Shown: piece by piece, positions 3,035 to 54,118 of the stretch | Position numbering within the stretch: the stretch's first letter is position 1 | How the letters are laid out: every line of letters starts with the position of its first letter | Program-made: the position numbers and the translations under genes | Notes under the pieces: model-generated | What the model was told of the DNA's origin: nothing | Database searches by the model: none | Seen by the model: only the letters and a program-made list of their open reading frames with translations | Origin: Escherichia coli | GTDB lineage: Bacteria > Pseudomonadota > Gammaproteobacteria > Enterobacterales > Enterobacteriaceae | Reading direction: 5' to 3' (one strand) | Assembly (NCBI RefSeq): GCF_001677475.2 | Contig: NZ_CP015229.1 | DNA length: 64,000 nt

Positions 3035-4074
3035 AAAAACCTCTCGTCACCCGGAATGAAATAGCCGAAGCGATCGCCCTGCATACTGCCTGTATGCCGA
3101 CACGGGAGATCCCCGGCGCAATTGCCAACTATTTCATGATAACCAAGCGTTTTTATACCCGGATAGATAAGGCTGTGATCAACAGGCTACTGATAGCCGA
3201 GATCAGGGATTATTTGATTGAACAAGGACGTCTACGTTACGCAACAGTGGCAGCAGAAATGAGAAAGGAGGCACATAGAATGACCGGTAATAATTTGAAT
3301 GTTGAAAAACCAGCACCTGTTGCTTCAGCTACGCCAGCACCAGCCGTGAATGTCATCCCCAACACCGGAGACACAATCGACAGCCAAACATTGTTGAAGA
3401 TGGTCAATGAGGCACGCAAGTTATGTGGAGAACCATTGGTTAGAAACAATAAATTCATCGAAAAAATACTCGACGAATTAGAAGGTGAGGACGGTTACAC
3501 AAAAAGTGCAACCGTGCCGCCAGGTGGCGGTACGCCTATGGTTGTCATAACCATGACCTACAAACAAGCCCTGCGAGTTGCCGCGCGCGAGTCAAAAGCG
3601 GTCCGCCGTTCGCTGATCGACAAACTGGAAGAATTGCAGCAGGCAAACTCCCCTGCCCCATCGATCCCCCAAACATTACCAGAAGCTCTACGCCTGGCTG
3701 CCGAGTTGGCAGAACAGAAAATGCAGTTGGAACAACAGCTGGTGGCCGCAGCCCCTAAAGTCGATTTTGCCGACCGGGTATCAGTGGCCAATGGAATCCT
3801 GATCGGGAACTTTGCAAAGGTCGTTGGACTTAAGCAAAACGCCCTTTTCTCATGGTTGCGCCAGAGCGGCATTCTCATGGCTTTTGGTGAGCGCAAAAAC
3901 GTACCGCGCCAGCAATACATTAATGCCGGGTATTTCACGGTGAAAGAAGTGGTGCTGGATGATGAAAATGGCTACCAGATACGGCTGACGCCCCAATTAA
4001 CGGGTAAAGGCCAGCAGTGGTTAACTCGCAAGCTACTTGATGCTGGTTTGTTAAAACCAGTAGCAATAGGTTAA
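3031..4074 (+). CDS. ant1: antirepressor Ant1 (KilAC/ANT C-terminal domain)
   Basis: 347 aa; translationally coupled to icd; C-terminal PQTLPEALRLAAELAEQK...GKGQQWL block shared with kilA and the second ant-like gene. Confidence 0.8.
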   Translation: MKKPLVTRNEIAEAIALHTACMPTREIPGAIANYFMITKRFYTRIDKAVINRLLIAEIRDYLIEQGRLRYATVAAEMRKEAHRMTGNNLNVEKPAPVASATPAPAVNVIPNTGDTIDSQTLLKMVNEARKLCGEPLVRNNKFIEKILDELEGEDGYTKSATVPPGGGTPMVVITMTYKQALRVAARESKAVRRSLIDKLEELQQANSPAPSIPQTLPEALRLAAELAEQKMQLEQQLVAAAPKVDFADRVSVANGILIGNFAKVVGLKQNALFSWLRQSGILMAFGERKNVPRQQYINAGYFTVKEVVLDDENGYQIRLTPQLTGKGQQWLTRKLLDAGLLKPVAIG

Positions 4075-4084
4075 TAAAAGAAAA

Positions 4085-4112
4085 AAACCTGCCAGCAAAC
4101 TGGCAGGTTTCT
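4085..4112 (+). terminator. intrinsic terminator after ant
   Basis: acctgccag-caaa-ctggcaggt hairpin followed by tttct. Confidence 0.55.
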
Positions 4113-4151
4113 GAGCAGATCGTCCAACCCGATCTGGATCGAGTTAGAAAA

Positions 4152-4169
4152 ATTTGCTCTAATAAATTT
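4152..4169. promoter_or_regulatory. C1 operator upstream of kilA-repL
   Basis: atttgctctaataaattt, near-perfect match to the P1 C1 operator consensus. Confidence 0.7.
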
Positions 4170-4238
4170 CGTTTTATAAGTGCAAATAATCACCATTTCG
4201 AGCTGGTGATTGAAGGTTGATGCAAATTTGGAGAAAAA

Positions 4239-5039
4239 ATGCAACAAACATTCAATGCGGATATGAATATATCAAACCTTCATCAAAATGTCGATCCTTC
4301 AACCACTCTGCCCGTTATTTGTGGTGTTGAAATTACGACCGACCGCGCTGGCCGTTACAACCTTAATGCTCTACACAGAGCGAGCGGACTCGGTGCCCAT
4401 AAAGCGCCAGCTCAATGGCTAAGAACGCTGTCAGCCAAACAGCTCATCGAAGAGCTTGAAAAAGAAACTATGCAGAATTGCATAGTTTCGTTCGAAGGCC
4501 GTGGCGGCGGCACGTTTGCCCATGAATTGCTCGCTGTGGAGTACGCAGGCTGGATTTCTCCCGCGTTTCGGCTGAAGGTAAACCAGACATTTATCGACTA
4601 TCGAGCCGGAAGATTACAACCTGCTATTCCGCAGAGTCTCCCTGAAGCTCTCCGTTTGGCTGCCGACCTGGCAGAGCAAAAGCAACGGCTGGAGCAAAAA
4701 ATGCTTATGGATGCACCTAAAGTCGAATTCGCCGAACGCGTTGCTACCGCCAGCGGGGTTCTAATCGGCAACTATGCCAAAGTGCTCGGCCTGGGCCAAA
4801 ACTATCTCTTCACCTGGTTGCGTGATAACGGAATTCTGATCGCAACCGGTGAACGCAGGAACGTCCCCAAACAAGAATACATATCCCATGGGTATTTCAC
4901 CCTTAAAGAAACCGTGATCGATACAAGCAATGGAAGCAGGATTTCTTTCACGACTCGTATAACCGGCAAAGGTCAGCAGTGGCTGATGAAGCGATTGCTT
5001 GATGCTGGTGTGCTGGTACCTGTCGCGGCAACGCGCTAA
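4239..5039 (+). CDS. kilA: KilA (KilA-N domain plus KilAC domain)
   Basis: 266 aa; C-terminal PQSLPEALRLAADLAEQK...GKGQQWL block; followed by repL as in P1. Confidence 0.8.
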   Translation: MQQTFNADMNISNLHQNVDPSTTLPVICGVEITTDRAGRYNLNALHRASGLGAHKAPAQWLRTLSAKQLIEELEKETMQNCIVSFEGRGGGTFAHELLAVEYAGWISPAFRLKVNQTFIDYRAGRLQPAIPQSLPEALRLAADLAEQKQRLEQKMLMDAPKVEFAERVATASGVLIGNYAKVLGLGQNYLFTWLRDNGILIATGERRNVPKQEYISHGYFTLKETVIDTSNGSRISFTTRITGKGQQWLMKRLLDAGVLVPVAATR

Positions 5040-16859: not shown

Positions 16860-17095
16860 CCAGGCTTTCCCGTCAGCACACATCCTATATCCCGCCAGCA
16901 CACATTAGCAACCCGTCAGCACACATTTTTATCCCTCCAGCACACATCGTTTTCCCTCCAGCACACATCGCGATACACTTCTAAGCCAGACGTGACGCGG
17001 CCTGCAACGATCAGGGATCTATATGGATCTAATTGGGATCTGTATGGACCTAATTATTGGATCTACCCAGTGGATAATGTGGATAAGTGAAAAAC
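16860..17095. other. oriR: incC iterons plus oriR (GATC cluster and tandem DnaA boxes)
   Basis: five CCAGCACACAT-type iterons 16866-16969; five GATC sites 17009-17063; tgtggataa DnaA box 17078-17086 and near-copy 17070-17078. Confidence 0.85.
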
Positions 17096-17126
17096 CGGCC
17101 AACATAGCCGGTTGGAAGGAAGGGTA

Positions 17127-17519
17127 TTATTCTACGCTTTCGATAAGAAGACCATGTTCATAACATTTAAGCTCATCGCCTTCGTACAGGAATTGGTATC
17201 CAATACCACCATTTTCATGGACATTAGGGAATAACTCATAACTCACTGAAGAGCAAATCACACCAATGCAACGATCAACGCCTTCTCGTTCTTCAGTGCT
17301 GAAAAAATCCTCTTCGGTAAGAACATGAGTACATTGCTCATCAGCATAGGTCGGAAATACATGCTCGATGCAATCCGGGTGTTTTAAACCAAGCTGATCG
17401 GCAAGCTCGAAAGCATGACGGTATTGTTCAGATCCTGGCTTGCCAACAGTGATGTGCTCAATTTTGTAGATTGAAGTCGCTTTGTTGATAGTTTGCTTTA
17501 CTGTTACTTTATCAGACAT
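17127..17519 (-). CDS. hypothetical protein
   Basis: 130 aa ORF next to oriR. Confidence 0.45.
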   Translation of the reverse strand: MSDKVTVKQTINKATSIYKIEHITVGKPGSEQYRHAFELADQLGLKHPDCIEHVFPTYADEQCTHVLTEEDFFSTEEREGVDRCIGVICSSVSYELFPNVHENGGIGYQFLYEGDELKCYEHGLLIESVE

Positions 17520-17530
17520 AAAAATCCCTT

Positions 17531-17863
17531 TTAGTTACCGCTGATAGCGCGGTTGTAATCATTAACGTTGCGATTCTTCCTGTTAATCCCCATCAGCATC
17601 GTTTCTGTATCGAGGATATACGCTGGCAGATCATCAAAATATTCACTGCTAAACTCTGGCATTCTGCACATAAATGCACTTTTGGGGGCAGGGTGGTTAA
17701 CCTTTGTCGGCGTCGGCGTTAAATTCGCTGATCGACTCCCGGAGCAACCGCTGAGTGTCAGCAGGAATGCGCTGGCGAACATTACCCGCCGCAACCAGTT
17801 GTTTCTGAACTTCAGCTTTTCGTTCCATTTGCCTGTCAGCATATTTGGCTTGTTCTGATTCAT
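17531..17863 (-). CDS. lipoprotein (o-spanin-like); true start probably internal near 17782
   Basis: signal peptide plus lipobox LTLSGCSG, proline-rich TPTPTKVNHPAP; 5' end overlaps the upstream gene in another frame. Confidence 0.5.
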   Translation of the reverse strand: MNQNKPNMLTGKWNEKLKFRNNWLRRVMFASAFLLTLSGCSGSRSANLTPTPTKVNHPAPKSAFMCRMPEFSSEYFDDLPAYILDTETMLMGINRKNRNVNDYNRAISGN

Positions 17864-18146
17864 TTTTCACTTCCTGGCTGTGAAAATGTTGCTCTGCTTT
17901 GTTCATCGTCTCAATGGTCTGGTTAAGATCCATTATTGACTTATCACGTTCCTTAACAGCCTGATCAAGACTGCCAATTTTCTCCATGGCTTGCTTTAGC
18001 TGATGACGTTCCCATGCAAACCCAGCACCAACAAGTGCGCAAATCAGAACAAGAACACCAGTAGCAGCAAGTTTCTCCTTCAAAGACAAAGCTGTTTTTA
18101 ACGTAGAAAAGAATGACATGTCTTCCTCCTGAAGAAAAATTATCAA
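17697..18146 (-). CDS. membrane-anchored coiled-coil protein (i-spanin-like)
   Basis: N-terminal TM GVLVLICALVGAGFAW followed by charged coiled-coil region; 3' end overlaps lipoprotein gene. Confidence 0.5.
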   Translation of the reverse strand: MIIFLQEEDMSFFSTLKTALSLKEKLAATGVLVLICALVGAGFAWERHQLKQAMEKIGSLDQAVKERDKSIMDLNQTIETMNKAEQHFHSQEVKNESEQAKYADRQMERKAEVQKQLVAAGNVRQRIPADTQRLLRESISEFNADADKG

Positions 18147-18418
18147 TGAAGTCCTTTGTTACTGTGCCGCTTTGTTTAATTCATCAAGAACAGAATCAGG
18201 AACCAAAGCGGCGACTGCGCTGGCTGTGCTGGTCTTATTTGCTGATGCTTCCGCAAGCGCGGTACCAATAGCATGGCCATAAGCAGTTATGGCTATGCTG
18301 GCGCTTTCCTTCGCCCGTTCATACTGCTGTTGCAATGCAACAGTGGGCGCTGTTGTTTGGTTGAAAACTCCCCCAAACTGTTCAGTTGCTACTTTCAGAG
18401 CTTCAATTTGCTTTTCTG

Positions 18419-18946
18419 TTAGTGCTGGTGGGGGAATGGCAGTGCCGCCGCCTGAACCAGTGCCTGACGAGCTTTCAGAGCCAGTGTTAAGGGTCTGGTT
18501 AATCTCCCCATAGCAGCGACTAAACTTGATGTATTAAGCGCGTTTACAGCGTCCTCAAGCGATTTAGTAATAGTCACATCACCAATGGCAATAGAGATTG
18601 GCAGTTCTGAAACTTCTCGCTCATTAGCACGGCAGTAAACATCCCAACCAATATCGAGTTGAAGCAGCATTGACAGATCTGCATAACCAGCCAACAGGTC
18701 CGCGTGCTTAGTTGCCAGTTCTCCAATGTTCGTTAAGCCGGTTGTGGTTGTTCTGATCGTTGAAACATAGCTGGTAATAGTGTCAGGATAGACAATTGTA
18801 TCCAAAATTAATCCGGTCAATTCTTCTGCAAGCTGTTTTGCCGTGTTAGCACTGCTTCGTGCCGATGTTATGGCACCTGGTGTTTTCATCCCACCGGCTG
18901 CGGCCAATTTTTTATATGCGGATAATTGGTAGTCTTTTTCCAGCAT
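18419..18946 (-). CDS. hypothetical protein
   Basis: 175 aa ORF. Confidence 0.45.
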   Translation of the reverse strand: MLEKDYQLSAYKKLAAAGGMKTPGAITSARSSANTAKQLAEELTGLILDTIVYPDTITSYVSTIRTTTTGLTNIGELATKHADLLAGYADLSMLLQLDIGWDVYCRANEREVSELPISIAIGDVTITKSLEDAVNALNTSSLVAAMGRLTRPLTLALKARQALVQAAALPFPHQH

Positions 18947-18954
18947 GATATCTC

Positions 18955-19239
18955 CTAACTTACCTGAACCAGGCCGTCACCTGACGCTACGGTAGAGCCG
19001 CATGAAACAGGGTCACCAACGCATACGATCCCTTTACCATTGACGGTAAACCATGCCCTGGTTGATATAGCTTGCCCACCGTGCGTACTGTTTCCATCGG
19101 TATGCTGTGCATATTGCTTACCATCAACTAACACTTCGACTCCGTTGACTTTAAGTAGTGGTTCACTCTCTACAGGAGGCCTGGATGGGAATCCTCCGTG
19201 CCCCGAACAAATGCTGTCTTTTGTTGCAATACTTGCCAC
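18955..19239 (-). CDS. PAAR-like small protein (putative spike tip)
   Basis: 94 aa; CSGHGG, HTDGNSTHGG, GDPVSCG motifs. Confidence 0.45.
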   Translation of the reverse strand: MASIATKDSICSGHGGFPSRPPVESEPLLKVNGVEVLVDGKQYAQHTDGNSTHGGQAISTRAWFTVNGKGIVCVGDPVSCGSTVASGDGLVQVS

Positions 19240-19319
19240 GTAATCACCAATTATTTGCTCTGGTTTTCGTTATTTTAACCTATGTTACTTGTGGTCTACA
19301 TAGCGTTCACTATTGCATA

Positions 19320-19336
19320 ATTGCTCTAATGAATAT
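19320..19336. promoter_or_regulatory. C1 operator-like site
   Basis: attgctctaatgaatat. Confidence 0.5.
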
Positions 19337-19407
19337 TGTTTTTTATGTAGTATTTTCGGTACCATTCAGCCATCGCCCTTCAATGGGCATTTGTTTGGAG
19401 TCGTCAG

Positions 19408-19692
19408 ATGCAGATGGAGCTAATAAGCCGCAAGGAGTTCGATAGCCGTGTAACCAGCGGTGAACTCGACAACTTGCAGGCTATCAAGGTGAAAGAAGGC
19501 TTTTGCCTCATTGGGAATCAGAGCGGAACAAATCGCGTTTTTATGCTTCGCCGTACGGATTTGAAGCCATTTGTCTGGAAGAACGAAATTGGTCCCAGCT
19601 CATACGCTCAAACGAGGGGGTGCCACAACTTGGCCTTTTTCTACAAAGACGAGCTTTCTGTGGTTGATATTCAAGGGTTACAACATGTTTAA
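19408..19692 (+). CDS. hypothetical protein upstream of the RdgC homolog
   Basis: 94 aa ORF overlapping hrdC start by a few nt. Confidence 0.45.
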
Positions 19693-53852: not shown

Positions 53853-53894
53853 TGTTTTTTATGCGCAGCTGGACGTAAACTCCTCTTCAGACCT

Positions 53895-53928
53895 AATAAC
53901 TTCGTATAGCATACATTATACGAAGTTA
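53895..53928. other. loxP: loxP recombination site
   Basis: exact ATAACTTCGTATA-GCATACAT-TATACGAAGTTAT. Confidence 0.98.
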
Positions 53929-54118
53929 TCTTAAGGGTTATTGAACATGATCAATTTACCTGTAAATCCATACAGTTCAATACCTTATCAGGTCAAATAG
54001 TGATCACTTGATCATTTGATCAAGGTTGCGCTACGTAAAATCTGCGAAATGTTGGCAGTGTTAGTGCTCCAGATTTCGCGTAGCGCACTTAGCACCACCA
54101 ATCAATCAGAGGTGAAAA

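Follow-up and report, generated by a model that had tools for sequence, protein, structure and literature searches.

The open reading frame (ORF) at 18955..19239 of the window, i.e., the whole stretch of 64,000 nucleotides of Escherichia coli DNA that was analysed, is upfC, carried by a P1-like phage-plasmid. Its product is, with an estimated probability of about 0.95, the P1 spike tip, which belongs to the PAAR superfamily as a minimal protein with a single domain and is orthologous to T4 gp5.4. The original prediction, which had read the protein as a PAAR-like virion spike cap, agrees with cryo-EM of P1 virions, in which UpfC is placed on the gp5 trimer (PMC12810830). This spike tip is already known: its gene is annotated and has been tested genetically, its structure is solved, and models of it in P1 baseplate maps date from 2025-2026. 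The identity of the protein, its fold, and the conservation of its ligands were tested here, and its position in the virion is taken from the published cryo-EM.

With P1, P7, RCS47, and further phage-plasmids of the P1 type, positions 17000-21000 of the window share 96-98% nucleotide identity. UpfC is identical to its P1 counterpart (YP_006534.1) in 93 of 94 residues (99%), the sole change being A86S, and to the protein encoded in P1 isolate OP279344 in all 94 residues, the A86S change being common to both. At the codon level, upfC differs from the reference P1 gene by 13 synonymous changes and a single non-synonymous one (A86S), which argues for purifying selection on the gene. Moreover, the upfB-upfC region (18100-19420) is present in 615 plasmid records, mainly from E. 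coli. In the P1 RefSeq record, parA, incA, repA, oriR, upfA, mlp/ppfA, upfB, and upfC follow each other on one strand, and the other strand carries the divergent, C1-controlled Pdmt-uhr-hrdC-dmt operon. The P1 UpfC orthologue group (Punavirus) is characterized by near-identity as well as by the synteny oriR-upfA-mlp/ppfA-upfB-upfC / uhr-hrdC-dmt, and both are found for the ORFs of the window. Like P1 upfC (product YP_006534.1; 9VYI chain A), the gene has a GTG start, the same length, and the same neighbours, with upfB downstream and the divergent Pdmt-uhr-hrdC-dmt genes upstream, whereas the conservative A86S change and the frameshift in the adjacent upfB set the window apart. Alignment of window positions 17000-21000 to P1 positions 62822-66645, in combination with the annotation of oriR at 62688-62929 in P1, locates upfC at approximately 1.85 kb from oriR and bears out the oriR-proximal location proposed for the gene. 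In the deposited P1-like genomes OP279344.1 (2949-3410) and MH160767.1 (55568-55849), upfC is intact but unannotated.

The ORF is a real gene, and its coordinates are given together with those of the other features in Table 1. Translation of its 94 codons yields MASIATKDSICSGHGGFPSRPPVESEPLLKVNGVEVLVDGKQYAQHTDGNSTHGGQAISTRAWFTVNGKGIVCVGDPVSCGSTVASGDGLVQVS. The CxGHGG, THGG, and GDxVxCG motifs from which the PAAR-like character had been deduced are all three present in UpfC, but their description as repeated did not hold, since they are three different motifs that occur once each. A literal P-A-A-R tetrapeptide is absent from the whole 94-aa sequence; in gp5.4-type proteins the crossover carries 'identical or similar' sequences (PMC12407873). 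An antisense ORF opposite upfC (19040..19243, plus strand, 67 aa) was set aside, as it came without supporting evidence.

Table 1. Positions of upfC, its sequence elements, and other features discussed in the text
Feature	Position (nt)	Strand	Remarks
upfC CDS, PAAR-type spike-tip protein	18955..19239	minus	94 aa; GTG start, TAG stop
Shine-Dalgarno-like GGTGAT	19243..19248	minus	3 nt upstream of the upfC GTG; putative function
UpfC motif CSGHGG	19192-19209		aa 11-16
UpfC motif THGG	19075-19086		aa 52-55
UpfC motif GDPVSCG	18997-19017		aa 75-81
His14 codon (in CSGHGG)	19198..19200	minus	predicted metal ligand 1; invariant in 9-sequence alignment
His46 codon	19102..19104	minus	predicted metal ligand 2; invariant in 9-sequence alignment
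His53 codon (in THGG)	19081..19083	minus	predicted metal ligand 3; invariant in 9-sequence alignment
Cys80 codon (in GDPVSCG)	19000..19002	minus	predicted metal ligand 4; invariant in 9-sequence alignment
C1 operator Odmt, ATTGCTCTAATGAATAT	19321-19337		in the 168-bp upfC/uhr intergenic region
upfB 5' part	18419..18946	minus	175-aa ORF, cut off by frameshift
upfB frameshift site	18506..18509	minus	G4 run (CCCC on plus strand); one base fewer than in P1 OP279344 and NC_005856
upfB 3' part	18159..18505	minus	approximately 115 codons in another frame; open, conserved, ends LNKAAQ-stop, aligns to P1 upfB
ppfA with embedded mlp	17531-18146	minus	ppfA 149-aa ORF; PHROG Rz-like and Rz1-like spanin families
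dmt with intein	20587-23844	plus	1085 aa, versus 754 aa in reference P1
Gene 5, trimeric spike, UpfC binding partner	29096..29728	minus	208/210 residues identical to P1 gp5; intact
loxP-like site, arms ATAACTTCGTATAGCAT / ATAACTTCGTATAATGT	53894-53931		pattern match

The search with PAAR profiles by which the prediction was to be checked supported it: PHROG_281 ('PAAR motif') matches the whole of UpfC at 2e-30, and Pfam PAAR_motif (PF05488) matches aa 51-91 only, at 8.5e-6 and 26.4 bits, which falls 0.6 bit short of the gathering threshold of 27 bits. This shortfall is marginal, and within the PAAR superfamily (PF05488 / cd14671) the tips of the T4 type form a divergent group. Comparison with the PDB by phmmer returned chain 9vyi_A, named 'UpfC', as the best match (1.7e-60), followed by the T4-like tips 9f4b, 5iv5, and 4ku0 at 5e-10 to 1e-7, and by the Vibrio cholerae PAAR protein VCA0105 (4jiv) at 3.7e-4. 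A profile was built from an alignment of nine sequences, with homologues from P1-like, T4-like, Vibrio, and Rhizobium phages collected by tblastn against phages. With this profile the PDB matches to 4jiv (VCA0105) and 4jiw reached 8e-18 and 3.5e-15, respectively, and the PAAR domains of the type VI secretion system (T6SS) effectors Tas1 and Tre23 (approximately 1e-5) as well as the eCIS tip Cis10 were also found. Judged from sequence, the likeness between UpfC and PAAR proteins far exceeds what chance would produce.

Structure prediction, another check that had been suggested, led to the same family. The AlphaFold2 model obtained from the single sequence was unusable (pLDDT 40.5) and was replaced by a model based on the nine-sequence alignment (pLDDT 78, pTM 0.68). 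As modelled, UpfC has the conical PAAR fold of three wrapped beta-hairpins. In a Foldseek comparison with the PDB the top six matches of the model were all PAAR tips, including the P1 baseplate (9VYI) and 9F4B, both with a TM-score of 0.85, T4 gp5.4 (4KU0; TM 0.84), the T6SS PAAR proteins 4JIV and 4JIW (TM 0.78), and phiKZ gp163.1 (TM 0.60), and no non-PAAR PDB entry matched the model below E = 0.6. In T4 gp5.4 a tetrahedral His3Cys site holds Fe at the hairpin tips, and the H14A substitution abolishes binding to the gp5 spike (PMC12407873). By alignment, His14, His46, His53, and Cys80 of UpfC correspond to this Fe site, and we infer that they bind a metal in UpfC as well.

The deposited P1 record notes that UpfC is 31% identical to T4 ORF 5.4, and the product is named 'PAAR motif' in RefSeq. 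Gonzales et al. 2022 linked UpfC, by means of HHpred, to gp5.4, the spike tip of T4, and reported that deletion of upfC leaves P1 plaquing unaffected (PMC9024508). In the same study UpfC was undetected by LC-MS/MS of purified P1 virions, which its authors explain by the presence of one small copy per virion. In a genome-wide CRISPRi screen, upfC and upfB were classified as non-essential, as were the genes around them (PMC10695390). The P1 cryo-EM study of 2026 built a monomeric UpfC on trimeric gp5, in an arrangement strikingly similar to that of T4 gp5/gp5.4 (PMC12810830), and an independent preprint also locates UpfC at the needle tip, by means of an unrefined AlphaFold2 multimer superimposed on the map (10.1101/2025.07.21.665459). 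With respect to the presence in virions that the original prediction entailed, the proteomic analysis (PMC9024508) thus failed to detect the protein, whereas the cryo-EM model, with one UpfC monomer seated on trimeric gp5 (PMC12810830, 9VYI), places it there. Leiman and colleagues reported that, among the tail proteins of T4 and P1, gp5.4/UpfC is the sole pair that BLAST can detect, and found that T4 assembly proceeds without gp5.4, which is needed for fitness and for infecting mutants with deep-rough LPS (PMC12407873).

The binding partner of UpfC is encoded by gene 5, the product of which matches PDB chain 9vzk_q ('Gp5') at 1.6e-136, and its Phage_base_V OB domain scores 22.9 bits in Pfam, versus a cutoff of 23.8 bits. 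Gene 5 closes the late 26-25-7-24-6-5 operon, which has its LP26 promoter at 33877..33895. The distance between upfC and gene 5 is 9.9 kb, in agreement with the earlier notion that the spike cap is encoded away from the main baseplate cluster. Eight genes checked nearby (ban to 26) are at or near their P1 lengths; the departures are 2 additional aa in ban and 6 additional aa in gene 24, the latter with an upstream TTG start. No promoter is annotated upstream of upfC in the P1 RefSeq record, and a sigma-70 scan around upfC gave a number of matches equal to the chance expectation. A weak sigma-70 match at 19278..19250 (minus strand) was rejected as upfC promoter, because transcription would start too near the start codon. 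A late promoter of the Lpa type, sought with the LP26 pattern (at most 3 mismatches), was absent from 19240-19420; the search recovered the true LP26, and its total number of matches was near chance. The intergenic region between upfC and uhr also carries Pdmt, on the plus strand.

Among known spike tips, T4 gp5.4 (4KU0, 5IV5) parallels UpfC in that it has a similar size (97 aa versus 94 aa), superimposes with a TM-score of 0.84, conserves the His3Cys site, caps the beta-helix of a trimeric gp5 as a monomer, and can be missed without loss of plaque formation. The two proteins differ in that only approximately 30% of their residues are identical, and in their genetic setting, since gene 5.4 of T4-like phages is located within a 5-5.1-5.4-6-7 cluster, whereas upfC lies 9.9 kb from gene 5. 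In addition, T4 gp5 contains a lysozyme domain that is absent from P1 gp5, and a tripod like that of UpfB has not been described for T4. The T6SS proteins VCA0105 (4JIV) and c1882 (4JIW) share the conical PAAR fold with UpfC (TM 0.78) and likewise sharpen a beta-helical spike of the VgrG/gp5 type; unlike UpfC, they are parts of a bacterial secretion system and belong to a class that often carries effector extensions, and their identity to UpfC is 14-21%. The P2 gpV-type spike resembles UpfC in ending the central spike in a sharp, metal-stabilized tip, but its apex domain is fused to the spike polypeptide instead of being a separate monomeric PAAR protein, and the trimer contributes three HxH motifs that hold the Fe.

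The mechanism can be summarized as follows. One UpfC monomer folds into a small cone with pseudo-threefold symmetry, composed of three wrapped beta-hairpins. In the middle of the baseplate it docks on the beta-helix of the gp5 trimer, at its blunt C-terminal end, and gives the puncturing spike its sharp tip. The tetrahedral site of His14, His46, His53, and Cys80 would staple the tips of the hairpins, with a metal for which the Fe of T4 gp5.4 is the precedent. Upon sheath contraction the UpfC-tipped spike may be driven through the outer membrane, and the P1 tip has been proposed as an anchor for UpfB trimers, too. By analogy with T4, the tip probably improves fitness or permits infection of hosts with an altered envelope, next to being dispensable for plaque formation in the laboratory.

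The labels attached to the family in databases point to other functions. According to one of these, UpfC would be a PAAR adaptor of the T6SS type or a 'moron' membrane protein that carries or recruits toxins or takes part in host takeover, instead of being a part of the virion. This explanation is in line with the category of PHROG_281 ('moron, auxiliary metabolic gene and host takeover; PAAR motif of membran proteins'), with the product name in RefSeq, with the location of upfC among non-structural genes beside the plasmid origin, and with the matches of the UpfC profile to Tas1 and Tre23, two T6SS effectors, in their PAAR domains. These names are inherited from the family without functional testing, however, and UpfC is a bare PAAR cone of 94 aa that lacks N- or C-terminal extensions, effector domains, and other Pfam domains. 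The closest relatives of the protein are phage spike tips, and the cryo-EM reconstruction that puts UpfC on the P1 spike (PMC12810830) largely refutes an adaptor or moron function, which we regard as extremely improbable. The phospholipase function that is suggested by the product name of gene 5.4 homologues in many T4-like phage records, and by that of PDB entry 9f4b chain BA, deserves hardly any credence: no phospholipase family was matched in the Pfam search with UpfC, the modelled PAAR cone occupies the whole chain, and the same proteins are annotated elsewhere as 'cell puncturing device tip gp5.4'. It thus seems that a spike-tip protein was mis-annotated and that the 'phospholipase' and the 'moron' or membrane-protein labels were both propagated from record to record.

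A more subtle alternative is that UpfC is a vestigial passenger, a protein that retains its fold and perhaps its attachment to the spike without adding anything to infection by P1-like phages. Such a role would be compatible with the absence of a plaque or fitness phenotype upon deletion (PMC9024508) or CRISPRi (PMC10695390) and with the lack of an LC-MS/MS signal (PMC9024508), as well as with the frameshift that upfB, the proposed partner, has in the window. It is nevertheless very unlikely, as it is opposed by the strong purifying selection that is apparent from the ratio of synonymous to non-synonymous changes in upfC (13 versus 1), by the conservation of the region across the 615 plasmid records, and by the invariance of all four predicted metal ligands in the nine-sequence alignment. 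Moreover, T4 gp5.4 was likewise deemed dispensable until its role in fitness and in infection of deep-rough LPS hosts was found (PMC12407873).

The frameshift in upfB is located in a run of four G residues, where OP279344 has five and NC_005856 reads GGAGG, and the remaining 175-aa ORF matches the PHROG_1559 family over positions 1-154 of 263 only. Among the plasmid matches listed, 12 of 12 span 1 or 2 nt more than the 1321-nt query (18100-19420), and this observation, together with the near-P1 lengths of the neighbouring genes, indicates that the change in upfB stems either from a mutation private to this element or from a lone homopolymer sequencing error. The ATG of upfB (18946) is located 8 nt past the upfC stop, and an AGGAG sequence overlaps that stop codon, which suggests that upfB is translationally coupled to upfC. 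In NC_005856.1, the annotated start of upfB (3661-4506, 281 aa) lies within upfC, by 49 nt, and in OP279344 upfB (262 aa) begins at the ATG 8 nt past the upfC stop, with a good AGGAG. The latter ATG looks the more likely upfB start in comparison with that of the reference P1 annotation.

Three UpfB trimers have been proposed to form a 'tripod' at the spike tip, on basis of an AlphaFold3 model fitted to medium-resolution density (PMC12810830). UpfB matched no chain in the PDB, in agreement with the use of an AlphaFold3 model in that study. If the frameshift were a natural variant, a private 1-bp deletion would have removed the 'tripod', virions of this element would carry a bare UpfC tip, and upfC-upfB might constitute an exchangeable accessory that affects which envelopes (LPS types) can be penetrated. 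This scenario draws on the deep-rough hosts of T4 gp5.4 as precedent for LPS-dependent use of a tip, and an exchangeable, conditionally useful upfC-upfB module would be suggested by the location of these genes apart from the tail genes and without a recognizable late promoter; we consider it speculative and rather unlikely. The biological question at stake is what P1 infection gains from a spike tip that it can do without, and from UpfB as the partner of that tip; to this the window adds only a possibly natural upfB frameshift. The practical value of the analysis lies in annotation, as some P1 records omit upfC and databases label the family 'membrane protein', 'moron', or 'phospholipase'.

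Several other elements of the window were encountered along with upfC. The lipoprotein gene mlp (110 aa, signal LTLSGC) is contained in another frame within ppfA, and the matches of ppfA and mlp to the Rz-like and Rz1-like families suggest an embedded spanin pair directly downstream of upfC-upfB, far from the other P1 lysis genes. The enlargement of dmt is accounted for by a predicted intein with a homing endonuclease, which was recognized by its Hint_2 and LAGLIDADG_3 domains (Pfam) at approximately aa 77-420 and has the boundaries GGTP|CFTAGH...VVHN|CQAFS. It presumably interrupts the C5-cytosine methyltransferase half at its catalytic PCQ motif. In P1 isolate OP279344, dmt is also enlarged (3042 bp). 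Finally, the loxP-like site is consistent with a window that runs through the P1 lox-cre region.
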